From positions 1 through 11,709 of IMG/VR virus record IMGVR_UViG_2548876944_000019: a stretch of DNA of 11,709 nt. One strand, written 5' to 3'. Below the pieces are notes generated by a model. The model was given only the letters and a program-made list of their open reading frames with translations, made no database searches and was not told the DNA's origin. Source of the stretch: a virus. Taxonomy: Duplodnaviria; Heunggongvirae; Uroviricota; Caudoviricetes. This document shows positions 1-11,709 of the stretch, one piece after another. The first letter of the stretch is position 1, and each line of letters begins with the position of its first letter. A program made the position numbers and the translations under genes.

Positions 1-267
1 ATGCGCAGAAAAGAATCAAACGTTAGCAGTTTGCCGGAACTCACCAATTTTGAGGTAAGCTATTCCCTAGTTACCAATGAAGTTTACTTGTCTGCATCCT
101 TCACTGATAACATGGCCTGTATACCAAACTGGCCCTTACAAGAATTTCCGGATCAACTAATATGCATTTCTCGAGCAAAAGCTATTGCCCTAATCGAAGA
201 GCTCCAGAAGACCATCGACTATATGGACGCAGGAATCGATCGACAATCAGGTAGCCTGCTCCAGTAG
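1..267 (+). CDS. Hypothetical protein (88 aa) in AT-rich cargo island
   Basis: ORF opens with ATG at window position 1 and stops at 265-267. Composition is AT-rich, unlike the tail genes. No motif recognised. The true start is uncertain because the ORF touches the window edge. Confidence 0.35.
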   Translation: MRRKESNVSSLPELTNFEVSYSLVTNEVYLSASFTDNMACIPNWPLQEFPDQLICISRAKAIALIEELQKTIDYMDAGIDRQSGSLLQ

Positions 268-400
268 CTGGCGAGTTTTATACTCGTTCCCTGCAACAAT
301 GGGCTTTTGGTAAGGCACTCACAAATAAGGAATTCGTTAAGGTTTTTGTTCTGGAGACTCTGAAAGATACAAGGAATCTGTTGATGGCTGGTTTGATCAT

Positions 401-441
401 ACTAATTAATATATTGTCAGACTCACAATATATTAATTAGT
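401..441. promoter_or_regulatory. Perfect 16-bp inverted repeat with 9-bp spacer, candidate operator
   Basis: ACTAATTAATATATTG (401-416), spacer TCAGACTCA (417-425), CAATATATTAATTAGT (426-441); the arms are exact reverse complements. It lies in the AT-rich intergenic region about 130 bp upstream of the 281-aa ORF. It is too AT-rich to be a stable terminator stem. Confidence 0.5.
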
Positions 442-568
442 GGTAGAACATAAAACCGAGTTCTTGACTTTCAATAGCTATTATATGCGATCAACAACCT
501 TAACCACCTCCTTATATTTTATGAGACACTCAAACAATTTAAATTTATGAGCAAAGGAAAATAATAAA

Positions 569-1414
569 GTGAATAAAAATCCCTGGGATATTCCAGCATG
601 GCACGCTCTGGGCCGAGAAGCATCTTTAGTTACACAGCTCATTGGTTCTGGGGCAACAGCCATAGGTAAAGCCAATTATGCAGACAAAATAGGTGAATAT
701 TACACAGCATTTTTTGGGCTTTCTGTAGGTTTTGAGAGACTTGCTAAACTAATACTTGTTGCGCACTATGCCATTGAACACAAAGGGAAAATGCCTGACG
801 AGAATATTGTAAGAAAATTTGGACATAAGCTCATTGAATTAACCAACGAGGTTGATAGCATTTCTAAAAAAATGCAACTATCTCTGAGATATTCACGTCC
901 TACACATAAAATTACCTACAAAATACTTGAATGTTTAGATTCCTTTGCTGATGCCCGACGGGGACGTTACGCAAATTTCTCCTCATTAAGCAGCCCCAAT
1001 TTAACCAATAATGAACCTATTAATAAATGGTGGGGAGAAGTAGCCGAGAGTATCCTTGAAAAACATTATTATTATACAGTTGAACAAAGACGTGTTGAAG
1101 AAAATGCTAGGTTTATCAATGCCACTCTTTCACCGTATACAACGGTCATGTATATGAATGAAAGTACCAACATTATGCAAGACCTTATATCAGCCTCCAT
1201 CCGTACTGGACAAAATACCATTGTTCAAAAGTGGGGAAGATTCTATTCTCTTAGCATCGCTCGTTGGCTTGCCACAGTATTAACAGAACTGTCTGATATA
1301 GCTTCTCATAAATATGGAATAATTAGTTTTTATGGCCTTAGTGAACATTGTTGCAGTTATATAGTTGAAGATAGTTTTTTAAAAAACAGAAAAATATGGC
1401 CACTTCGCCAATAG
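569..1414 (+). CDS. Hypothetical protein (281 aa), candidate accessory or defence cargo gene
   Basis: GTG start at 569 preceded by AAGGA at 554-558; stop TAG at 1412-1414. AT-rich relative to the tail genes. No hydrophobic membrane segments noticed. No family recognised by eye; the only weak hint is one R-x5-H pattern (RYSRPTH). Confidence 0.6.
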   Translation: MNKNPWDIPAWHALGREASLVTQLIGSGATAIGKANYADKIGEYYTAFFGLSVGFERLAKLILVAHYAIEHKGKMPDENIVRKFGHKLIELTNEVDSISKKMQLSLRYSRPTHKITYKILECLDSFADARRGRYANFSSLSSPNLTNNEPINKWWGEVAESILEKHYYYTVEQRRVEENARFINATLSPYTTVMYMNESTNIMQDLISASIRTGQNTIVQKWGRFYSLSIARWLATVLTELSDIASHKYGIISFYGLSEHCCSYIVEDSFLKNRKIWPLRQ

Positions 1415-1418
1415 TTAA

Positions 1419-1733
1419 CTAGAAAATCTGCATAAGGGGGAGAAATCCCCCACCTGTAATAACATCACTACTAAAATTAACACCTCGTTCGCGCAACTCC
1501 TCTACCAGCACGACAAGATGCCGCATACTGCGCCCCAGTCGGTCCAGTTTCCAGACCACCAGCGTGTCACCTGCCGATAATGTCCTGAGCAGCTTTTTCA
1601 GTCCTGGTCTGTCGGACTTTGTACCGCTTATCTTGTCTTCAAAAATCAGCTCACATCCTGCACAGTTCAGCGCATTACGTTGTAGATCTGTGTTCTGGTC
1701 ATTTGTTGACACACGTACATAGCCAATAAGCAT
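1419..1733 (-). pseudogene. pin: Truncated serine DNA invertase (Din family, Pin/Gin/Hin/Cin-like); catalytic N-terminal domain only
   Basis: N-terminus MLIGYVRVSTNDQNTDLQRNAL...VVWKLDRLGRS...LRERGVNF matches the resolvase/invertase catalytic domain as I recall it, with the catalytic Ser in the RVST motif. After residue 87 (nt about 1473) the sequence becomes unrelated (SSDVITGGGFLPLMQIF) and stops at 104 aa. Full-length Din invertases are about 180-190 aa and end in an HTH DNA-binding domain. Confidence 0.85.
1436..1451. terminator. GC stem-loop (GGGGGA-GAAA-TCCCCC), possible terminator at the junction of convergent genes
   Basis: 6-bp perfect stem with a GAAA loop, 22 nt after the stop of the 281-aa ORF and inside the non-native 3' tail of the truncated invertase ORF. 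The plus strand lacks a U-tract after it; the minus strand has a partial T-rich run (TTATGCAGATTTTCT). Confidence 0.3.
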
Positions 1734-1787
1734 GAGAAATAACCCTGTAAAAATCCGGGATCATGCCATCTGAGCCGAATAACTGCA

Positions 1788-1813
1788 TTTTCTAAAAGGT
1801 TGGTTTGGGAGAA
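1788..1813. other. Left inversion crossover site (gix/pix/hix-like, 26 bp), core TT at 1800-1801
   Basis: TTTTCTAAAAGG TT GGTTTGGGAGAA. The reverse complement (TTCTCCCAAACC AA CCTTTTAGAAAA) resembles the Din-family site pattern TTCxxxxAAACC-AA-GGTTTxxGAxAA recalled from hix/gix. It lies 55 bp upstream of the invertase start, as in Mu and e14. Confidence 0.6.
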
Positions 1814-2293
1814 GGCTCTGCATTACCTGTTGGTGTCCCTGTTCCGTGGCCTTCAGCCACCCCGCCGACAGGCTGGCTGAAATGCAACGGTGCGGCTTTT
1901 TCTGCTGAAGAATACCCGGAACTGGCAAAGGCTTACCCGACAAATAAATTGCCTGATTTACGCGGTGAGTTTATTCGTGGCTGGGATGACGGACGTGGAG
2001 TGGATAACGGAAGGGGATTATTAACGCTTCAGGACGGTGCGATTGTCAGTCATAACCACTATTGGGGAATCTGGACTTCACGAACTAACGACCAGACTCT
2101 GGGAAGTTTTTCAGGCACCACGATTTTAAAACAAATCACGCCCCTGTCTCCGGCCATTGACTTCGATAATTACCAAATTCCCAACCCGGCTATTACAGAG
2201 GGTGGTGTTGTTGCGGCAACGACTAAACCTGCAGGTGCGAATGAAACACGCCCACGAAATGTCGCTTTTAACTATATTGTGAGGGCTGCATAA
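1796..2293 (+). CDS. Alternative tail-fibre C-terminal (receptor-binding) segment, Sv'-like, without its own start codon
   Basis: The frame opens immediately after the TAA at 1793-1795. It has no ATG; the ORF track start at 1805 is TTG with a weak SD. It carries a tail-collar-like motif (GWLKCNGAAFSAEEYPELAKAYP). The stop TAA at 2291-2293 overlaps the ATG of the downstream Tfa gene. Confidence 0.7.
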   Translation, partial: KVGLGEGSALPVGVPVPWPSATPPTGWLKCNGAAFSAEEYPELAKAYPTNKLPDLRGEFIRGWDDGRGVDNGRGLLTLQDGAIVSHNHYWGIWTSRTNDQTLGSFSGTTILKQITPLSPAIDFDNYQIPNPAITEGGVVAATTKPAGANETRPRNVAFNYIVRAA

Positions 2294-2895
2294 TGAATAA
2301 CGCAGAATTAAACAGTGAATTAATTGCCACTATGGCAGGAGAAATTACTGTTTATAACTTTGACGTCATGAGTCGGGAGTATATTTCAGCTTCAACTGAA
2401 TATCTTGCTGTTGGTGTCGGCATTCCGGCATATTCCTGTTTAGATGCTCCAGGCACCTACAAAGCTGGTTATGCAATCTGCCGCTCTGCAGATTTTAACT
2501 CATGGGAATATGTACCAGACCATCGCGGTGAAATCGTCTATAACACCGAAACGGGAGACGCCAAAGAAATCACAACTCCGGGTGATTACCCCGAAAAAAC
2601 AACCACTATCGCCCCGTTAACGCCATACGATAAATGGGATGGTGAGAAATGGGTGACGGATACTGAGACACAGCATAGCGCCGCAGTAGACGCGGCAGAA
2701 GCACAACGTCAGTCACTGATTGATACTGCAATGGCTTCCATTAGTCTGATTCAACTGAAATTGCAGGCCGGGCGGAAGCTGATGCAGGCAGAGACCACCC
2801 GACTTAACACTGTGCTGGATTACATTGACGCGGTGACGGCAACAGATACCAGTACCGCGCCGGATGTCATCTGGCCTGAACTGCCGGAGGAGTAG
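2293..2895 (+). CDS. Tail-fibre assembly protein (Tfa/U'-type chaperone) paired with the alternative fibre tip
   Basis: 200 aa, coupled to the upstream Sv' frame by a TAATG overlap. The C-terminus (LDYIDAVTATDTSTAPDVIWPELPEE) is the conserved Tfa C-terminal motif. It sits convergent to the other Tfa gene. Confidence 0.8.
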   Translation: MNNAELNSELIATMAGEITVYNFDVMSREYISASTEYLAVGVGIPAYSCLDAPGTYKAGYAICRSADFNSWEYVPDHRGEIVYNTETGDAKEITTPGDYPEKTTTIAPLTPYDKWDGEKWVTDTETQHSAAVDAAEAQRQSLIDTAMASISLIQLKLQAGRKLMQAETTRLNTVLDYIDAVTATDTSTAPDVIWPELPEE

Positions 2896-3313
2896 GCCAT
2901 TCAATATCTGGCGCACTGGAAGTATCGACCAGTTCCAGTGCGTCCAGATAATCCAGCCACAAATTATATTGCGCCAGTTCGTCACCTTTCAGACGACCAA
3001 TAGCGGCTTTACCGGGCCACTGCTTACTATTGATATAATAGTTAGCCTGCTCAATACGGGACCTTTTTTCGGCGTCAGCAGTTCTAACAAGTTCTTCGTG
3101 AGTCGGTTTAGGTTCATCTACCCATTCAGGGAAGCCATCATTCCCTGCTGCACGTATCTTGCCATCCGGTGCATTTTCTGCTTTCCAGGAGATAAATCCG
3201 TCCTCATCAAAATCGACTCCCTCATCAGGCCATTGCCCGCTTGCCAGGTAGCTATCCTTAAGGGAGTAAGGGAAAAATTCGTTTGTAACTGCTGAGTATC
3301 TGTATTTGGTCAT
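2867..3313 (-). CDS. Tail-fibre assembly protein (Tfa/U-type chaperone) for the currently expressed fibre
   Basis: 148 aa, immediately downstream of the fibre gene (fibre stop codon 3316-3318, ATG at 3313). The C-terminus (LWLDYLDALELVDTSSAPDIEWPTPP) is the conserved Tfa motif. Confidence 0.85.
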   Translation of the reverse strand: MTKYRYSAVTNEFFPYSLKDSYLASGQWPDEGVDFDEDGFISWKAENAPDGKIRAAGNDGFPEWVDEPKPTHEELVRTADAEKRSRIEQANYYINSKQWPGKAAIGRLKGDELAQYNLWLDYLDALELVDTSSAPDIEWPTPPAVQAR

Positions 3314-3315
3314 AT

Positions 3316-3987
3316 TTATTTCCCTATGGCTATCCAGGCAATTTCTGCTCCTGGAGTGCTCCAGTTGGCAATTCGGATTGTTGAAAGATCAGCTGACGAC
3401 ACGCCAACTGGTTTTGAAGGTGAGGGATCTGAACCCCAGAACGAAGCAAGAACAATATAGCCTGAGGTAGTAAAAGGGATTGGCAGCGTCCTTACCGCAA
3501 TCTGTCCTGCCGCCATGGTTGTCCTCCCGCTCTGAATAATTGTCCCGTCTGGAAACTTTACCCACCCACTACCACTGGTCCATGCAGACATGTCTGGTAG
3601 TTGGTTAGCACCTGTTCCGACATCTCGTTTCGCCGCTTCGCCCAAACCAAGATTTGAGAGGGCCGTTTTCACCGTGCCATCCGATTTGATATCACCAAAC
3701 GGATTCTTGCGGCTCAGGTATTCAACAGCAAACCCCGATCCCAGCAATTCAACAAAACCGGGCAGATCACCATTATCAAGCACATCCCGTTGCGTTTTGT
3801 CACTTACAAACTGGGCCAGAGCTGCAGCAATAAAGCTGGCCTGCCGAATAACCTTATTGACTTGCGCACTGGATGCTTTCCCTGCTGTAAATCCGGATAA
3901 AAGCGCAGGCAACGCTTCCCATTCCTCCTGCGACATAACATTGGCATTTTTACCCGTTGCGAATGCTTTAAAGTCATTTTTTGCCAT
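3316..3987 (-). CDS. Tail-fibre protein (constant N-terminal part fused to the currently oriented variable C-terminal part)
   Basis: The ATG at 3987-3985 overlaps the TGA of the upstream gene (ATGA), so it is preferred over the in-frame ATG at 4005 given in the ORF track. The right crossover site lies in frame inside it (ALSNLGLGE). It is followed by a Tfa gene. Confidence 0.8.
3637..3662. other. Right inversion crossover site (inverted relative to the left site), core AA at 3649-3650
   Basis: TTCGCCCAAACC AA GATTTGAGAGGG. Its reverse complement matches the left site at 13 of 14 positions across core plus inner half (TTGGTTTGGG[C/A]GAA). It lies inside the tail-fibre gene at the constant/variable junction. 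Confidence 0.6.
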
Positions 3988-4667
3988 CAGAGTAATACTC
4001 CCCATGCCCCTACATCAAAACCACTGATGAATTCGTTATCCATATCAAAACCAAAAAATTTTGAACCTTCCGATGGGGTTTCCACCGAAGGTGTTTCAAT
4101 GCCACCCGCCCACACCCCGGCGGCTTTTACTGTGAGATATCCCTGTTTAATTGCAGCAATTAACTCACGCGATACATCTGAAATATCAGTATCAGGAAAG
4201 ACCCAGACCGATATCGTCATGTCCTGGTTATCGACAATCTGCATTCGCAGCCCGGATCCTGCTGTTGCCGCGTCAAGAATTGCCGGAAGCGAATCATTCC
4301 GTCCGTCCCAGTTATTAATCGCAATCTTCGCTTTAAGAATGACACGATAAGTTTCATCGCTGAGATACATGTATCCAGAATCAGGATCATATGGCCCCTG
4401 CCATACCCCCTGATCATATCCAAGCCCGTCGGTATCCCAGCTGAAATAGACACCTGAGATAGGCTGGCTGACAACACGGCTACGTCCGATCCACAATCCC
4501 AGAATGTCAAGTTGCACACCAACCGCAGAGTCAATATCAAATGCAGTAATCAGCCCTCTGGTGGCAGCCGCAACATCAATAAGTGGCCGGGTCATCAGAT
4601 CAACATGCGCAAGAAATTTAGGTTTGGTGGCGTGGTAGTTCGTGATTAGTTCGGTGTATTTGCTCAT
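3987..4667 (-). CDS. Baseplate/tail protein, gpI-like (Mu gp48 / P2 gpI position)
   Basis: 226 aa; sits between the gpJ-like gene and the tail fibre; ATGA overlaps at both ends. Assigned by position and size, not by a recognised motif. Confidence 0.6.
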
Positions 4668-5863
4668 GACTCCACCGTTATAACGATATTTTCCGGGGTA
4701 CAGGACGCAGATTCGTTGTATCTGATATCAATGTTTGATGACGACAAAGCCCCCGGGGATTTCCCAATCGTCAGTTCCTGAATATCGTAATAGCGTGCAT
4801 TACCGCCACTCACCACGCCAAGATTCGCCGGTGAGTAAATGCGACTTAAAAGGACCGAATTACCAATCATCAGACTATTGATATAGTCGGAAATAGCCTG
4901 CTGGATCTGTTGCCCTATCTGTGAGGTATAACCCGTAAAAACTTTTAATTTAATCCGGGCATAAACAGGTACATCACTGGAACGCGAGAATTTGATTACA
5001 TGGGGATTGCCGTATTTATCCGGAACCGTAACGGATGTTGTACCGTGAGTGGCTGTCCCCTGGCCTTTATTCCCTCTGATAGCCTGAGCAATATCCGTCA
5101 CATCACCGCCATCCACAATTACAGCAACAGAGTGTGGCGGTAACCCGTTACCGTCCTCCGAACCAGTATCGTTTTCATAGAGTTTGTGGCGGGTTACACC
5201 GGTAACATTAGAAACGGCACCATCCAGTGCTTCAAATGGGGTTATTGATGGCAACGCAACACTTTGCGACTGGCGGATACGTAACTCCGCATCAGTTTCT
5301 GCTGGAGTGCCTACAGTAGCTGCAGCAGGATTGGTTACCGAAACCCAGCCACGGGTTGGCGTATTAATTTCAGTGATAGTTCCAGCCAGCGCCGCCACTG
5401 CACCACTGACGGAACATTTTGCGGTCGCCATCACTGTACCATCCACGCCGACCACCACTGAAGCAGGCAAACGCCATATCACATTATTACTGTCTTTCAC
5501 GCTGCCATTAATGATGGTTGTTCCGGCAGTTCCTGTAAGAAGCAAATCAACCGTAGAGTTCGTCGCGCCTTTACGTGAAATACCATTTATTTTCACGTTG
5601 CTGGTCAGTGCAGCCCCATAGCCGGTTGCCGGTGAAAAACAGTTGTAGACAGTTATCGCCATATTATTGGCATCATGAATCGCCAGCGCCATCAGAGCCA
5701 CCATCTGGCCGTCTTTGCTGTCCGGTTCGAGGTAGGCATCACTGCCATAAACCTGCTGAAAATAGCTAATCAGGGTGCTGAGTATCGTCTGATAATCAGG
5801 CGCACTGATCCCCTCCGCGGTTACCTTTGCAGATAAACCGAGAGAATCAAGGTTCAGAGCCAT
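4664..5863 (-). CDS. Baseplate protein, gpJ-like (Mu gp47 position)
   Basis: 399 aa; follows the gpW-like gene with a TAATG overlap and precedes the gpI-like gene with an ATGA overlap. Assigned by synteny. Confidence 0.6.
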   Translation of the reverse strand: MALNLDSLGLSAKVTAEGISAPDYQTILSTLISYFQQVYGSDAYLEPDSKDGQMVALMALAIHDANNMAITVYNCFSPATGYGAALTSNVKINGISRKGATNSTVDLLLTGTAGTTIINGSVKDSNNVIWRLPASVVVGVDGTVMATAKCSVSGAVAALAGTITEINTPTRGWVSVTNPAAATVGTPAETDAELRIRQSQSVALPSITPFEALDGAVSNVTGVTRHKLYENDTGSEDGNGLPPHSVAVIVDGGDVTDIAQAIRGNKGQGTATHGTTSVTVPDKYGNPHVIKFSRSSDVPVYARIKLKVFTGYTSQIGQQIQQAISDYINSLMIGNSVLLSRIYSPANLGVVSGGNARYYDIQELTIGKSPGALSSSNIDIRYNESASCTPENIVITVES

Positions 5864-6216
5864 TACGCCTCCGATGTAACAGTCGTTATTCCATAGAGAG
5901 TGTCGATTTCAGCGGAAAACATGACACGTCGGGTCGTGGTATCCACCGTCGTATTGAAAGAGAGGATTGATTTAACGCCCCGCGTTTCCAGAATGCGTTT
6001 TCTGATCGCCAGGTTGTAAGTTTCCGGTTTTTGCCTGCCCAGCACGGACTGGATCCACGGAGTCCCCTCGGTGGTGTCGAGAAACCATTGCCCATACCAT
6101 AATTCGAATCGCGTTTTTACCGCCTGCGCCACGGCCTCCGGTGAGTTAATCAGCCAGGTGTCATCACCGCTGCCAAAGGTATAATCGCCATCGGCGTCTT
6201 CACGTCTGTATCGCAT
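5863..6216 (-). CDS. Baseplate wedge protein, gpW/gp25-like
   Basis: 117 aa, a size typical of gpW/gp25. Its C-terminal region resembles P2 gpW as I recall it. It sits between the spike and the gpJ-like gene with overlapping start/stop codons. Confidence 0.55.
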   Translation of the reverse strand: MRYRREDADGDYTFGSGDDTWLINSPEAVAQAVKTRFELWYGQWFLDTTEGTPWIQSVLGRQKPETYNLAIRKRILETRGVKSILSFNTTVDTTTRRVMFSAEIDTLYGITTVTSEA

Positions 6217-6971
6217 CAGTTAGGCGCTCCTGTGTTACCGCCGCCGGTCTGTACTCCGCCGTGCGTGTGCGTCATCAGGCTCTTACCACCAGCTTTTACA
6301 TCGTTAGTCACCGTGACAGGGCCAAGCATCGTCGCGGTGCCGCCGCTTTCGCCCATCCCCTGAGAGAGATTCCCGTTTATTGTCACGTTGCCGTTTAGCG
6401 TGATGGTGGGTGATGTGATCGTGGTTCCTCCTTCTGCTGTCGCCGTCAACGCGCCGGGAGTTTTAACCGTGATATTATGGCCTGCGGCCACTTCCACAAA
6501 CGCAGCGCCATCATCAGTACGCAGCTGCGCGCCACTGGTGCTTATTCCGCTTATTTTCTGCGCCTGAGACTGCGGCCCGACGATACAGAAAGCATCCGAT
6601 AAATCATGCACCCGGTCGTCGACAGGCTCCTGCACCCCGCCGTTCTGCCACCAGAAATCGATGCAGCGGTCGGCGAAAATCACCAGGCATTCATCCCCGG
6701 CTTTAACCGGAAAAGTCAACGTACAGCCTCCACCGCGCGGAAATACCACTGGCACATCCACCAGCAACGGGTAATTTTTGGTAATGCGGTTACCGTCGTT
6801 ATCCTTTTCAACCGAACGGATAGCTGGCTGCACAACCGCCGTCACCGCGTCGGGATCGAATGACTGAACAATGCCAGGCAAGGCGACACGGATCTGGTTC
6901 TTTGTTGTTTCCCGTTCAGATTTGAATGTTTCGGCAAGGTCGCCGCTGCGGGTCTGGTCAGATACTGCCAT
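6216..6971 (-). CDS. Baseplate central spike protein, gpV-like
   Basis: 251 aa with a C-terminal beta-helix-like repeat run (ITVKTPGALTATAEGGTTITSPTITLNGNVTINGNL) and a THTHGG (HxH) apex motif near the C-terminus, as in gpV-type spikes. Confidence 0.75.
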   Translation of the reverse strand: MAVSDQTRSGDLAETFKSERETTKNQIRVALPGIVQSFDPDAVTAVVQPAIRSVEKDNDGNRITKNYPLLVDVPVVFPRGGGCTLTFPVKAGDECLVIFADRCIDFWWQNGGVQEPVDDRVHDLSDAFCIVGPQSQAQKISGISTSGAQLRTDDGAAFVEVAAGHNITVKTPGALTATAEGGTTITSPTITLNGNVTINGNLSQGMGESGGTATMLGPVTVTNDVKAGGKSLMTHTHGGVQTGGGNTGAPN

Positions 6972-6990
6972 TTAGTAGGCTCCAGAAAGC

Positions 6991-7016
6991 AAAAAACCCG
7001 CCGGGTGGCGGGTTTT
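6991..7016 (-). terminator. Rho-independent terminator downstream of the lipoprotein gene, inside the tail operon
   Basis: Perfect 10-bp stem AAAACCCGCC / GGCGGGTTTT (6993-7002 and 7007-7016) with a 4-nt loop. On the minus strand the hairpin is followed by a T-rich run (TTTTTTGCTTTCT). It lies between the lipoprotein stop (7037) and the spike start (6971). Confidence 0.7.
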
Positions 7017-7036
7017 ATGTGACTAATTTGATCTTT

Positions 7037-7762
7037 TCAGTTTATAAGCCCCATCTTACCGGCGCTTCGATAGTTAATTACATCGCCTGAAGAGCCGCAA
7101 GGCACAGCTACAGTCGACATTTTGACAAATCCTTTACCGCCCTGCTTTTGGCATAAAGTGGCATGCATTTTTGCTAAACGCGCAGCATGGCCAAAATCAA
7201 TTTTGGTTCCGTAAGTTGAATCTCGTAGAGCTGCTTTTTTTGCAATTCCGGTAATATTTTTGTCTTTAATTACAGATGCAAACAAACTCAAATCATTTCC
7301 AATTTGATTGAAGCAAGTACGATTAATATCAACATCGGCATACGCTGAAATGCGTTTGCAATCTGAGATCTGAGAAAGCACAGATGTGTTAACTAGTTGC
7401 AAATTTAATTTGTAGTCACCGACATAGGTATAAACTTTGTTAGGGTCCGTGGTTCCCGGATAACGAGTTACGAATGGAATGCTGTTGTACGCATCTCGCA
7501 AAGATTCTGCCCCCTTACTTGTAAGCTCGTTCCCAACACCAGCAACGATAACCTCTGGATGTGAAACTTCAAATTGAGACTTTTCTTCGCGCTGTATTTG
7601 AAGCCTGCTTTTCTGGCTCTCCTCAACTTGCTTATCGTACGCTTGTTTTTCTTCATTTTTTTGGGATAGCCATTTTTCCTGCGCTTTAGCACCATTAGGA
7701 TCCCAACTACATGAAGTTAAAAAAAGAGAAAATACGATTGTGGTTATCGCAAGCCTGCTCAC
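7037..7762 (-). CDS. Predicted outer-membrane lipoprotein (241 aa), moron inserted in the baseplate operon
   Basis: GTG start at 7762 with GAGG 9 nt upstream. Signal peptide ends in lipobox LTSC with Ser at +2. A charged linker (KAQEKWLSQKNEEKQAYDKQVEESQK...) is followed by a four-Cys globular region. The gene is visibly AT-richer than the flanking tail genes and is followed by its own terminator. Confidence 0.75.
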   Translation of the reverse strand: MSRLAITTIVFSLFLTSCSWDPNGAKAQEKWLSQKNEEKQAYDKQVEESQKSRLQIQREEKSQFEVSHPEVIVAGVGNELTSKGAESLRDAYNSIPFVTRYPGTTDPNKVYTYVGDYKLNLQLVNTSVLSQISDCKRISAYADVDINRTCFNQIGNDLSLFASVIKDKNITGIAKKAALRDSTYGTKIDFGHAARLAKMHATLCQKQGGKGFVKMSTVAVPCGSSGDVINYRSAGKMGLIN

Positions 7763-7764
7763 TA

Positions 7765-8829
7765 TTATGCACCTCGATTCATCGCTGACTGGCTAGGAAT
7801 ATCACTAGCACCTCGAGCAAAGCACATCATGTCCATGTACCACGCCTGGCCCCTTGTGTCACCAGTGTACATAATCCCGCGCACAATATAAACGCCATCC
7901 GTTGCGATGCTGGCAGGTTGTGCTGTGGTGCCGCTGAGCGTGATATTACCGTCCGTGTTCTGGTCGGTGATCTGCCCACCAGCCATCGCGATATCATTGT
8001 TCGACAGCGCGGTGCGGTACACGGAAGCCTGATCCAGCTGAATAAGCCCGTTAACCCGGATGTTCGGATTAATCAGCGCACGGACGTTTACACCGTTGCC
8101 GATAGTCTGCTGCGGCATGCCAATAAGCCCGGTGGCGCTGTTGAGCACAATCGCGTCGTGAACATACTCGTTATTCGCCACCATCTGGCGCTGACCGTCC
8201 ACAAATTGCCATGTTGCGCCACATTGTCCGGCCACGTTATCCATAAGATGCCGTGTCATGCCGAACAGCACCCGCCCTCGAGGGAATACGGTAGCAGGCA
8301 TTTCAGGCGTCAGTCCTTCGGTCGCGCCTTTGGCCTCAAAGTCTTTCATCAGCGCACGGTTCACATCTGCGACCGTGTAACCGGCCGCCAGCGTCTGCGA
8401 GGTTATACTGGTGGCAAATGCCAGATCCGTATCTGCTGCCTGAATCAGGACATAGGAATCAATAGGGCTGTCTTTTCCTGTGACCGAGTAGCGAATTTCT
8501 CCGCTGAAAATCAGCCCGTAGTTGCGGCCATCACTCTGGCCCACATCTGCCGCGTCGACTTCACGCACGGTCCCGACGTCGCTTGCCGCCACCTCCGGCG
8601 CGATACCGTCGTAACCGGCAATCAGCCGCACTTTCGAAAACTCCTGCCCGGTAATTCGGTTCACAGTATCTGCCGAGAGGTTATAAATTTTGATAGTCCC
8701 TACCCGGGACGCGCTGCTGATGTTGAACCAGTCGATCGTAAAGGTGACTTTGAAATCACTTAGCTCAATTCCCTGACCGTTCCCGTCCACAAGCTGCAGC
8801 TCGAAATGTCTCATCCAGTTCTGTGACAT
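7765..8829 (-). CDS. Baseplate hub / tail protein (Mu gp44 / P2 gpD-like by position and size)
   Basis: 354 aa; ATG at 8829. Located between the small tail assembly ORFs and the spike, where hub proteins sit in Mu-type tails. No motif verified. Confidence 0.55.
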   Translation of the reverse strand: MSQNWMRHFELQLVDGNGQGIELSDFKVTFTIDWFNISSASRVGTIKIYNLSADTVNRITGQEFSKVRLIAGYDGIAPEVAASDVGTVREVDAADVGQSDGRNYGLIFSGEIRYSVTGKDSPIDSYVLIQAADTDLAFATSITSQTLAAGYTVADVNRALMKDFEAKGATEGLTPEMPATVFPRGRVLFGMTRHLMDNVAGQCGATWQFVDGQRQMVANNEYVHDAIVLNSATGLIGMPQQTIGNGVNVRALINPNIRVNGLIQLDQASVYRTALSNNDIAMAGGQITDQNTDGNITLSGTTAQPASIATDGVYIVRGIMYTGDTRGQAWYMDMMCFARGASDIPSQSAMNRGA

Positions 8830-8831
8830 GC

Positions 8832-9134
8832 TTACTCCGTTGATACCAGTAAATGACTGCGACCGCCCAGATCAGTTTTCGTGGGATAATCCTGTGTGTT
8901 GTCATCGCAGACCACCACCAGCTTAAAACCAAGCCCCATACAGGCGTACTGCGCCAGCAGATCAGCGCCAGTGACGAGAGGAATACCGGAGATTACCGGC
9001 TCTCCTCTGTCGTTCTGCAGGTCCATAATCCAGTAAGGATCGCGCCATATGATGCTAATCCGCCAGGTGACACCACCCAGGACGATGCTGAACTGCTGGT
9101 TGTCCGCTGTCAGCGGAATTTCCTGAATTGTCAT
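8832..9134 (-). CDS. Small tail/baseplate assembly protein (100 aa), function unassigned
   Basis: ATG at 9134 overlaps the TAA of the upstream ORF; it ends 2 nt before the hub ATG. Typical coupled small tail gene. Confidence 0.5.
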   Translation of the reverse strand: MTIQEIPLTADNQQFSIVLGGVTWRISIIWRDPYWIMDLQNDRGEPVISGIPLVTGADLLAQYACMGLGFKLVVVCDDNTQDYPTKTDLGGRSHLLVSTE

Positions 9135-9721
9135 TAGCCGCCTCCCAGTAATGACGCCACGTTACCCGTGATGCTTTTCAGCAGTGAAGTATCTGGAGGC
9201 TTTGTGGTTTTGTTACCGCTATTCTGTACCGCCGACGTGCTGGCCCCTTCCTTCATGTTGGTTTTATCCGCGACGGTAATCTTCTGTGTCCGGGAGATAA
9301 TGACCTCCCTCAGGGTGAGGACGGCGGACAGGACGTTTTCGGTTGTCTTGTCCGTCGTTACTTCCAGCGCCCGGATCAACATGTTGCTGTACAGCCGTTT
9401 ACCGGTTACCACATCGAAGGGGATACAGCTTTCCTGCAGATCCAGTAGCTCCTGATACGTCTGCTGAGGACTCAGGCCGAGCAGGCTGGTAGCCGTCAGA
9501 TTACTGGCAAAATCCAGCAATGCGCCGCCACCGGCGAAACCAACCTCCATCACCACTTCTGACGGTTTTTTATAGGCATGATCAGCGACAGCGGCCCCGA
9601 CCTCTACCGGATGCTCTGTTATTTCAAGCATATCTGTATGCTTCTCTGAAATAACAACACTGGGAACAATCATTCCTATTTTTCTGCTCTGCTGATGAAA
9701 AAGTGTAGAGAGAATATCCAC
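9134..9721 (-). CDS. Tail assembly protein (195 aa), function unassigned
   Basis: GTG start at 9721 overlapping the tape-measure stop (TAGTG), with an SD-like GGTGAGGG just upstream. An internal ATG 16 codons downstream is an alternative start. Confidence 0.5.
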   Translation of the reverse strand: MDILSTLFHQQSRKIGMIVPSVVISEKHTDMLEITEHPVEVGAAVADHAYKKPSEVVMEVGFAGGGALLDFASNLTATSLLGLSPQQTYQELLDLQESCIPFDVVTGKRLYSNMLIRALEVTTDKTTENVLSAVLTLREVIISRTQKITVADKTNMKEGASTSAVQNSGNKTTKPPDTSLLKSITGNVASLLGGG

Positions 9722-11709
9722 TAACCCACCCTCACCTGATTACTTCGCATGACCTGAGCATTTGCAGACTGTTGCCGACGTGCAACCTCATTACCGACAG
9801 CGTGCGGATCTCCGCCACCGTAAATGTGGTAAGTATTTTGCTGGTTAACCTCTGTCATTTTGCCACTAATTCCCGCCACGGCAGCCTTATTAATCAGCTC
9901 TCGAGAATAGATATTTCTTCCATTCTCATGCTGGATAATGCTGCTCATCAATGCTGACATGGTTTGCGGATCGCTCATATTCAGGGCAGCCCGGGGATCC
10001 ACTCCCAGTCGTTGCGATACAGCCCTGATATACGCAGTTGTGTTGTTATTATCAGACGCAGGTGCCCAGGTAGAGATAATTTTCTCCACACTGTTTATTC
10101 CCCGTCCGGCGTACAGCATTAACTGACGAGCAAGAGCCCGTAATCCATCAAAAGCAGTTTCAAATCTGGCAAATCGCCCGCCCGGGCGTTCAAGAGAAGC
10201 CCCTGCCTGACCAGCAAAATTAAGGTTTCCCGGATTGTTATTCCGTTCTCCTCGTTTCGTAGCCTGTGCATATTGTTCCGGCTCATCATCACCAAACCAG
10301 CCGCGTACCGTCCGGCCCACACTGCGGGGATCGAATCCCCAGTGCTCTTTAATCCAGTCGGCAGTACTGTTAGCGCTGTCTGTAACCATCGGCATCGCTG
10401 ACGGATTTTCGCTGCCCTGATTAAGTATCTGTTTGCCGATGCTGACGGCATCAGCCCAGCGGCCATCTTTGATAGCGTTGAGCAGGTCGGCGATCATGTT
10501 CAGCATTTTGCTGAATTCGCCCATCTGGTCGATGAAGTTGCTGAAATCCCACTTCAGGGACCATGATTTGGGGTCAATATTGAGCAGTTTCGCCAGCGCT
10601 TTCACCAGGTCGTTAACGGTCGTTTTAAGGTCACGAACCATCTTCAGCGCGGCATCGACCTCCGGTTTCCACTTGCCCCAGTCAATCAGGCTGTCGCCGC
10701 CTTCCTTCCAGGTCTGATAGTCCTCCCACAGGAGGGCAATACCCGCCGCCAGCGCGGTAATGAGGCCAATCGGCGACATCCAGAACGTACTGTTCAGAAT
10801 GCGCAGCGCAATCGTCAGTGCGCCAAACAGCGAGATCAACTCCCGCGTTTGCTTATCCAGCGATTGCCACCAGGTGATAAGGCCTGATGTCCCCTCAATC
10901 AGTCTGAAGAACAGCCGCCCGATAATATCCCCGAGCGCCAGAATGCCTTTTATGGCTTTCGTCAGGGTCTGCTCGATACGAGGGAAGTTGTCCAGGATAT
11001 GGCGGCGCAGGGTGTCCAGCGAACCCGCAAGCCCCCCCGCAAGATTAGAGCCGATTTTGTCACGGGCCATGCCTGCCATCGAGCCAAACTCACGCAGGGA
11101 GGTCATAAATTTGTTGGAGCTTCTGGCCGCCTCGTCAGCATTGAAGCCGATAGCTTTCGCCATTGCGCTGTACTGCCCGGAGAAGCCACCCACACCCCGG
11201 CGCATCGCCATAAGGGTATTTTCGTCAATGCCCAGCATCTGCGCATACTGGTTAGCCCGGTAATACGGCATGCTGCTGAGTTTCTGTCCAACGCCCGTAA
11301 AAATAGCGGCCATGTCACGCATGTTACCGCTGGCATCACGGGTCTGTACGCCCAGGCGATTCAGAAAGCCTTCTGCACCGGGATTGTTACGAATAAACCG
11401 GGATAGGCTTTCCAGAGAAGATCGCGCAGCGTCCACGCTGCCGCCAACCTGCGAAACCGCATAGCCAATAGACTGAATTCCCTGGACTGTCGCGCCGGTG
11501 CGCTGTGACGCCCAGTAAAGATTATCCAGGCCGGAGGCGATCTTAGCCGTGAAGGCCACCACGGACAACGCAGCTCCTTCAACAGCCAGCCCCATTTTGA
11601 TGACATTTGCAGTTGTACCGGCGAGGACAGAACCGAACTTTTTCGCTCCTGCATCATCCACACTGAAGCCAAGCGAGACGAGGAAATCTTTAATAGTTTC
11701 AGCGTTCAT
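9721..11709 (-). CDS. Tail tape measure protein (662 aa as given)
   Basis: Long, alpha-helical, Ala/Gly-rich protein with a central hydrophobic stretch (ISLFGALTIALRILNSTFWMSPIGLITALAAGIALLW), immediately upstream of the baseplate genes. The ATG sits at the window edge (11709-11707), so completeness cannot be proven. Confidence 0.8.
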   Translation of the reverse strand: MNAETIKDFLVSLGFSVDDAGAKKFGSVLAGTTANVIKMGLAVEGAALSVVAFTAKIASGLDNLYWASQRTGATVQGIQSIGYAVSQVGGSVDAARSSLESLSRFIRNNPGAEGFLNRLGVQTRDASGNMRDMAAIFTGVGQKLSSMPYYRANQYAQMLGIDENTLMAMRRGVGGFSGQYSAMAKAIGFNADEAARSSNKFMTSLREFGSMAGMARDKIGSNLAGGLAGSLDTLRRHILDNFPRIEQTLTKAIKGILALGDIIGRLFFRLIEGTSGLITWWQSLDKQTRELISLFGALTIALRILNSTFWMSPIGLITALAAGIALLWEDYQTWKEGGDSLIDWGKWKPEVDAALKMVRDLKTTVNDLVKALAKLLNIDPKSWSLKWDFSNFIDQMGEFSKMLNMIADLLNAIKDGRWADAVSIGKQILNQGSENPSAMPMVTDSANSTADWIKEHWGFDPRSVGRTVRGWFGDDEPEQYAQATKRGERNNNPGNLNFAGQAGASLERPGGRFARFETAFDGLRALARQLMLYAGRGINSVEKIISTWAPASDNNNTTAYIRAVSQRLGVDPRAALNMSDPQTMSALMSSIIQHENGRNIYSRELINKAAVAGISGKMTEVNQQNTYHIYGGGDPHAVGNEVARRQQSANAQVMRSNQVRVG

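Follow-up and report, generated by a model that had tools for sequence, protein, structure and literature searches.

How does the gene for a phage DNA invertase come to stop halfway along its frame, and what now occupies the place of the missing half? The question is raised by a stretch of 11,709 nucleotides (hereafter the window) from IMG/VR record IMGVR_UViG_2548876944_000019, a member of the Caudoviricetes, in which the remnant of a serine invertase gene of the Pin/Din family (pin) stands next to an AT-rich tract carrying an open reading frame (ORF) for an unannotated protein of 281 residues, ORF281. A preliminary description of the window had proposed that foreign AT-rich DNA took out the DNA-binding domain of the invertase, an interpretation that is right in essence and overstated in extent. 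Alignment to a sister prophage gives good support to a structural event that we regard as very probable, in which a cassette replaced an older cargo gene together with the 3' part of pin. The locus as a whole is fairly likely explained by such a swap of cargo at the prophage end, with ORF281 as the incoming defence cargo.

Replacement of the old cargo and the invertase 3' end

The sister prophage occupies the same chromosomal site in Escherichia coli strain 2013C-4465 (NZ_CP015241.1; locus L004); its pinE is full-length, and its genes run in the order yfhH, ORF88, a 215-residue ORF (ORF215), pinE and invertible segment. Breakpoints against this locus were placed by blastn and MAFFT. Window positions 1-282 correspond to L004 6001-6282 with 95.7% identity, and window positions 1467-1814, the extent of DNA homology to the intact pinE gene, correspond to L004 7328-7675; between these homologous blocks the window holds 1184 bp and L004 holds 1045 bp, made up of ORF215 and the 3' 282 bp of pinE. 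The left junction lies 15 bp beyond the stop codon of ORF88 and the right junction at 1466/1467, after codon 89 of pin, where the intact pinE runs on to full length and is followed by ORF215 and not by the cassette. The similarity to Din invertases thus does end abruptly, as had been described, a few bases away from the position first given (codon 87, about nucleotide 1473). Since nucleotides 1-282 are shared with the intact-pin prophage and are kept in Salmonella phage SEN34 beside attP and int, they are resident DNA and not acquired; about 81 further E. coli genomes share only this part, without the cassette. The tract that had been taken as acquired in its entirety is, by alignment, two things: resident prophage DNA with ORF88 at 1-282, and an acquired cassette at 283-1466.

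The invertase remnant ORF (minus strand, 1419-1733) encodes 104 residues, matching the PHROG family "DNA invertase" (E 4e-49) and, of the 145 positions in the Pfam Resolvase N-terminal domain, only 2-97 (E 2e-30). Compared with the intact 182-residue PinE of the sister prophage, 86 of residues 1-89 are identical, the stretch MLIGYVRVST included, and the last 15 residues (90-104) are unrelated and encoded by the cassette. Part of the N-terminal, resolvase-type catalytic domain of the Din/Pin family is therefore kept, and the C-terminal half with the helix-turn-helix DNA-binding domain, present in full-length members of about 180-190 residues, is not found in the remnant ORF. The label given by PGAP in complete genomes is "recombinase family protein, missing C-terminus", a pseudogene; judged by its sequence, the pin ORF is a pseudogene remnant and not a functional member of the Din/Pin family. 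The 15 extra codons (minus strand, 1419-1466; DVITGGGFLPLMQIF) are read from the terminal stem-loop of the cassette and give the ORF its 104 residues, and gene callers may name it a short "DNA invertase", as in the record of Escherichia phage vB_EcoM-606R2.

Composition and strand had also been read from the sequence as setting the AT-rich tract apart from the GC-richer tail operon, and both observations hold when computed. The GC content is 37.9% over nucleotides 1-1466, 36.6% over 283-1466 and 50.7% over 1467-11709, and all 906 segments of 1184 nucleotides taken from the remainder of the window have at least 45.1%. At third codon positions (GC3) it is 28% in ORF281 and 42-62% in most tail genes, an AT-rich ORF at 7037-7762 (35%) being the exception. 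All coding features left of the break, namely ORF88, the dinI-like remnant and ORF281, lie on the plus strand. Nucleotides 1-1814 are contiguous, with the same junction, in 44 of 5426 complete E. coli genomes, so the junction is not an assembly artefact, and the cassette is contiguous with the pin remnant in three phage or prophage records as well. Like other moron or accessory cassettes, it is flanked by conserved phage modules, missing from close relatives and distinct in base composition.

The left junction carries a clue to the source of the cassette. The 5' portion of about 130 nucleotides is missing from the dinI-like remnant, and no full-length DinI ORF (about 80 residues) is present, the approximately 38 C-terminal codons that are left having their frame broken by a 1-nucleotide deletion. 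Where dinI of the lambdoid phage mEp460 reads FVQETLKDTWESADEWFVH and then stops, the remnant reads FVLETLKDT, then the deletion, then ESVDGWFDHTN and a stop. The RNA of the palindrome that follows (400-442) folds at -17 kcal/mol (z = -5.2), with 0 of 200 shuffled sequences folding as well; it is probably the old dinI terminator, or an operator. The spacer beyond it is AT-rich (28% GC) and contains promoter-like hexamers (491-518 and 538-565), for which the evidence is at the level of consensus. At the right edge, the plus-strand fold of 1429-1458 reaches -14.6 kcal/mol (z = -2.2; 6 of 200 shuffles fold as well); a scan for consensus terminators passed it over because it has no T-run, and it is a possible terminator.

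Because the remnant resembles lambdoid dinI, and because dinI occupies an att-adjacent place in phages mEp460 and Fostie, the cassette looks like a piece of the equivalent slot, probably of a lambdoid prophage. One or two illegitimate recombination events would have exchanged ORF215 and the last 93 or so codons of pin (90-182) for a 1184-bp AT-rich fragment; this fragment, probably derived from the corresponding slot in another prophage that was itself probably lambdoid, would have brought along the decayed dinI 3' end, the hairpin and the intact gene for 281 residues. The nearest relative of the cassette DNA is a gene on an Enterobacter mori plasmid, with 77% identity over the coding region only.

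Two other histories of the tract can be weighed against this swap. That the AT-rich tract belongs to the prophage as ordinary DNA, and that the break reflects allelic divergence of a fast-evolving invertase C-terminus, is barely credible: the resident DNA with ORF88 (1-282) is itself fairly AT-rich (43.6% GC), as that history would have it, yet the remnant ORF has 104 codons against 182, no helix-turn-helix domain and no similarity past codon 89, a convergent and unrelated gene with homologues in many phyla fills the place of the pin 3' half, and a dinI pseudogene fragment sits at the other junction. Allelic divergence without acquisition is refuted by the alignment breakpoints against L004 and by the comparison with PinE. 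Unlikely, in our judgement, is a history of separate events, in which an element of the IS5 family of insertion sequences (IS), or some other deletion, removed the 3' end of pin and the old cargo and the AT-rich DNA came later, or the reverse. This history takes its strength from strain OkiPb01696 (NZ_AP042574.1; locus L005), where a single ISKpn26 of the IS5 family, at 6071-7265, stands in the place of exactly window 71-1470, removing the 3' part of ORF88 and the whole cassette with ORF281, so that IS activity evidently remodels the slot. Its flanks are non-identical, CTAG (window 67-70) on one side and, on the other, CTAA (1471-1474), 4 bp from the cassette/pin junction; this is what recombination between two IS copies would leave. 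Against the history of separate events, the window has no IS remnant, terminal repeat or target duplication at 282/283 or 1466/1467, and L005 appears to descend from the window type, with 0 differences from it over 1-70 (the intact-pin type has 3) and the same pin allele; since it shares the window alleles on both sides, L005 is probably a later deletion derivative and not an intermediate.

Table 1. Features at the att-proximal end of the window
Feature	Position	Strand	Description
ORF88	1-267	+	88 residues; resident prophage gene, phrog_17793 (PHROG E 6e-46); first gene inside the att-proximal end
AT-rich cassette, very probably acquired	283-1466		1184 bp, 36.6% GC; in the place of a 1045-bp block in L004
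dinI-like 3' remnant	290-409	+	Pseudogene of about 38 codons, frameshifted; 74-76% nucleotide identity to lambdoid phage dinI
Near-perfect palindrome	400-442		18-bp stem; repeat I3, 401-420/422-441; overlaps the stop codon of the dinI remnant
ORF281	569-1414	+	Cargo gene; GTG start; 281 residues; modelled as all-alpha with an N-terminal HEPN-like four-helix domain
GC-rich stem-loop	1429-1458		GGGGGA-GAAA-TCCCCC; just past the ORF281 stop, at the right cassette edge; supplies the unrelated tail of the pin remnant
Pin/Din-family serine invertase remnant	1467-1733	-	Codons 1-89 of about 182; frame open on to 1419 through cassette DNA
Left inverted repeat (crossover site)	1791-1814		Repeat I2, 24 nucleotides; 83% complementary to 3636-3659
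Invertible segment	1815-3635		Alternative tail-fibre C-termini and two tail-fibre assembly genes; Pfam Collar, Caudo_TAP (twice), Gp53-like_C
Right inverted repeat (crossover site)	3636-3659		From the inverted-repeat search

The 281-residue protein and its relatives

ORF281 is a real gene, conserved across many relatives. Homologue N-termini confirm the GTG start, and the annotations read, those of three carrier genomes and one phage record, all show an intact coding sequence of 846 bp. A collection clustered at 90% identity holds 485 homologues, and the members listed are 56-74% identical and all about 280 residues long; at 50% identity the family numbers 954 representatives. The 54 species representatives are distributed patchily across phyla, in Gamma-, Alpha- and Betaproteobacteria, Mycobacterium, Nitrospinota, Fibrobacteraceae, Chloroflexota and Gemmatimonadota. 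Looking up the protein accessions and phage names in the literature yielded no papers.

Comparison with described families returned little. ORF281 has no match among Pfam, PHROG or PDB profiles, which includes any described HEPN family in the Pfam and PDB profiles, and 31 distant relatives have no Pfam match at E ≤ 0.1. The sole NCBIfam match, to HdrC, scored 13 bits against a cut-off of 350 and was taken as chance. Foldseek searches with the ORF281 model gave no significant match in PDB or BFVD. Across distant members the invariant residues are E17, F49, E56, K60, H86, F126, R133, Y134, W154 and R232. H86 stands at the start of a helix (88-101) with an arginine at -4 (R-x3-H), which is lysine, methionine or valine in some members. 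The case for a HEPN domain is weak because of this varying arginine in an R-x3-H arrangement, the lack of a Foldseek match and the lack of a profile link, and "HEPN-like", a term taken from the model, is a weak lead rather than a classification. An N-terminal ABC-type ATPase domain was likewise not found by family matches, and the model, made up of helices throughout, contains neither a Rossmann-like nor a P-loop domain.

In 11 of the 54 species representatives, mostly Alphaproteobacteria such as Novosphingobium and Erythrobacter (loci L059 and L062), the homologue is the X of an arrangement hsdM-hsdS-X-hsdR on one strand, abutting or overlapping its neighbours; locus L041, where only an hsdR fragment stands beside X, would make the count 12 of 54, and at locus L016 the homologue lies between hsdS and hsdR. 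In Enterobacter it follows hsdM-hsdS-hsdR at the end of an integrase-bounded island that also holds Vsr, HNH and DUF4917 genes. Serratia homologues (72% identical) occupy the interval from gpA to the portal gene in P2-like prophages, in one case next to a PvuII restriction-modification system, and a further homologue sits at a Klebsiella prophage end. The Chromohalobacter homologue is about 3.5 kb from a Thoeris system, and that of Acidibrevibacterium stands alone among housekeeping genes. Other neighbours include Fic, Abi_C, an AbiEii-type ATPase, RelE, a reverse transcriptase, a cytosine methylase and ordinary metabolic genes, and among 81 immediate neighbours outside restriction operons there is no recurring partner gene. 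No hsd genes occur in the window itself, the placement between hsdS and hsdR being an association at the level of the family.

A distant paralogue is encoded on plasmids: a hypothetical protein of 273 residues with 33% identity to ORF281 over residues 17-175 (NC_019067.1, locus L079, 3968-4789), which has no Pfam match. This paralogue is present in 136 plasmid records, many of them conjugative plasmids of about 33-38 kb. The inspected plasmid, NC_019067.1, is typed IncX1/X3, and its copy lies near resolvase and partition genes as a gene of the backbone.

Among characterized proteins, the closest parallel in placement is PrrC, an anticodon nuclease whose nuclease domain is HEPN-like. ORF281 homologues occupy the same hsdM-hsdS-X-hsdR place and their predicted fold is HEPN-like too, whereas ORF281 has no ATPase domain, no sequence similarity to PrrC and no canonical Rx4-6H motif, and the window copy is a lone prophage gene that has no restriction genes around it. 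One study, with 145 candidate systems, used the embedding of genes in defence operons to predict a role in defence; it cites PrrC as a system almost confined to type I restriction operons, EcoprrI having it between hsdS and hsdR (bioRxiv 10.1101/2024.01.29.577857). In comparison with HEPN proteins that act as single genes, such as the abortive-infection protein AbiV (PDB 9bj5), and with the HEPN toxin SO_3166 (PDB 5yep), ORF281 shows no detectable sequence or profile similarity, has R-x3-H with a variable arginine and possesses an additional C-terminal helical domain of about 130 residues. The Serratia homologues lie exactly where P2-like prophages carry cargo, between replication gene A and portal gene Q, which we take to be the old/tin position; the window phage belongs to a different family and uses a different slot.

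Defence cargo or passenger

The proposal that ORF281 is a selected cargo, a stand-alone anti-phage or abortive-infection effector and possibly an RNase, draws on genomic context and predicted fold, and we rate its chances as even. Such an effector would shield the lysogen, and hence the prophage, from other phages, and the homologues between hsdS and hsdR would back up type I restriction in the fashion of prrC; at most, ORF281 works like an effector of the PrrC or AbiV type. A bolder version, which we put forward tentatively and a little short of even, sees a new and widespread family of single-gene immunity proteins: non-canonical HEPN-like effectors with R-x3-H and invariant E56, K60, R133, Y134 and R232, placed in type I operons at the prrC position in Alphaproteobacteria and elsewhere carried as lone cargo of prophages, P2-type slots and plasmids, whose gain would have cost this phage its tail-fibre switch. 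The value of the locus is as a pointer to an unannotated family of about 280 residues, found in many phyla and placed like defence genes, that offers a testable anti-phage candidate.

We see an appreciable chance, though one well below even, that the swap is real and ORF281 is not a defence gene: it would then serve mobile elements or type I restriction enzymes in an accessory or regulatory capacity, helping to maintain plasmids or prophages, acting as an addiction toxin or controlling restriction, and would have come along as a hitch-hiker. The backbone paralogue of IncX1/X3-type plasmids fits such a role and could, on sequence relationship, point to maintenance or another function in mobile elements, and many homologues are solitary among metabolic genes. 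Homologues nevertheless recur in slots for defence cargo (between hsdS and hsdR, between gpA and portal in P2-like prophages, and in the integrase-bounded restriction-modification island), the distribution across phyla is patchy, and a toxin-antitoxin pair is disfavoured by the lack of a conserved partner gene. Several further findings count against a defence cargo acquired by a swap, some of them favouring the passenger role directly. PADLOC-DB 2.0.0, which holds candidate as well as known defence systems, has no match to ORF281 at E ≤ 1 and none at E ≤ 0.1 to two of its homologues or to the IncX paralogue, and the canonical HEPN motif Rx4-6H is replaced by R-x3-H with a non-invariant arginine. 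About 42 of the 54 homologues are not beside restriction genes, some lying among housekeeping genes, and no experiment or database ties ORF281 to defence. When the cassette DNA was searched for a donor in complete E. coli genomes, phages and plasmids, only this locus matched. The swap may have taken a single step or more than one, and the loss of inversion is a prediction from the truncated gene.

By comparison of sequences among relatives, the stretch between the tail-fibre module and attP is an accessory ("moron") slot of varying content. ORF88 is 83% identical to SEN34_31, the neighbour of int/attP in Salmonella phage SEN34, and shares 51% identity with a gene adjoining int and dinI in phage Fostie. 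In SEN34 (locus L076, 5230-6321) the att-proximal slot holds an O-acetyltransferase gene and there is no invertase; in E. coli IAI1 (locus L003, 6326-8615) it holds ORF215 and an acyltransferase gene, the invertase and part of a tail-fibre assembly gene are gone, and this is a different remodelling of the same slot. The SEN34 slot with its O-acetyltransferase and the lambdoid slots of mEp460 and Fostie with dinI share with the window the order tail fibre, cargo, attP and int, with cargo on the strand opposite to the tail operon, and in the SEN34-like slot the flanking ORF88 homologue and the variation of cargo from relative to relative are as found here. The window differs in that its cargo is an unannotated gene for 281 residues, whose arrival cost half of the neighbouring invertase gene and was not a clean insertion. 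Rearrangement of this kind is routine, a turnover of cargo at the prophage end with collateral damage to the adjacent gene. In Fostie (locus L077, 4522-5008) the ORF88 homologue is followed directly by an intact dinI beside int/attP, and in mEp460 (locus L078, 1368-1616) dinI alone has the att-adjacent position; in both phages dinI has int/attP on one side and the tail fibre on the other. The pairing of ORF88 with dinI next to att may be a recurrent one, and could account for the dinI fragment at the left junction.

Prophage setting and the invertible segment

In complete genomes, the window is the right, att-proximal end of an E. coli prophage of about 41 kb that lies between yfhL and yfhH, genes that are adjacent in K-12. 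The prophage runs in the order yfhL, integrase, replication, lysis, terminase, head, tail, baseplate, invertible tail-fibre segment, pin remnant, ORF281, ORF88 and yfhH. Comparison with K-12 identifies the att core as a 38-bp direct repeat of the yfhL 5' end (codons 4-16 or thereabouts), present at both prophage ends. On the yfhH side this repeat stops some 207 bp short of window position 1, to its left, and the core gene yfhH lies beyond it, so the AT-rich tract cannot reach far beyond the window, as the preliminary description had thought it might. The nearest named phage is SEN34 (Brunovirus), in which int, attP, the ORF88 homologue, the O-acetyltransferase gene and the tail-fibre genes follow one another in the same relative order as in the window prophage, and by sequence the latter is a SEN34-like (Brunovirus-like) myovirus integrated into the 5' end of yfhL. 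An e14-type prophage with an icd flank, which had been suggested as the context, does not apply to an element between yfhL and yfhH whose relative is the Brunovirus SEN34.

The e14 prophage end of E. coli K-12, which we take to read invertible tail-fibre segment, pinE, mcrA and att, is presumably alike in having a Pin-type invertase for alternative fibre ends and then defence-type cargo at the prophage end; it differs in that the window holds a different phage, at yfhL and not icd, with a truncated pin and with cargo unrelated to McrA. The record of Escherichia phage vB_EcoM-606R2 (ON470579.1; locus L017, 1-2254), deposited as a complete phage genome, opens with the bacterial genes tadA, pgpC and yfhH, and may represent a stretch of prophage together with host flank, as opposed to packaged phage DNA. 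As the record is possibly an extracted prophage, we make no claim about the viability of a phage with truncated pin.

Beside the pin remnant, paired inverted crossover sites surround the tail-fibre segment, as is typical of Din/Pin systems; homology to relatives changes strand at these sites, and that to L004 does so exactly at 1791-1814. From what is known of serine invertases, a remnant that lacks the C-terminal half and the DNA-binding domain within it would be unable to recombine these two sites, or to invert DNA at all. The prophage has thus kept both inversion sites without an invertase of its own, and we infer that the switch of host range is either frozen or reliant on a Din-family invertase supplied in trans by another resident prophage. 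Carriers of the same cassette were checked for one segment in opposite orientations, and their segments proved mosaic and not simply flipped: loci L002 and L018 have flanks that are 99.9-100% identical, yet only half of the segment aligns, in inverted orientation and at 94.7% identity, the rest being non-homologous, and the L002 segment is in no other listed record carrying the cassette. Genomes in which the cassette and pin remnant are 99.4-99.5% identical (loci L001, L002 and L018) hold quite different invertible segments. Segments that differ beside a near-identical cassette indicate that fibre modules are swapped independently of the cassette.

A second AT-rich gene lies on the minus strand at 7037-7762, in a baseplate operon that is otherwise 50-57% GC. 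It encodes 241 residues with 41% GC (GC3 35%), has no Pfam or PADLOC match and is flanked by the spike gene (6216-6971) and by a baseplate-hub-like gene (7765-8829). The same position is occupied by a DUF4282 gene and a hypothetical gene in locus L001 and by two hypothetical genes in locus L002, and it may be a second variable cargo slot of this prophage.

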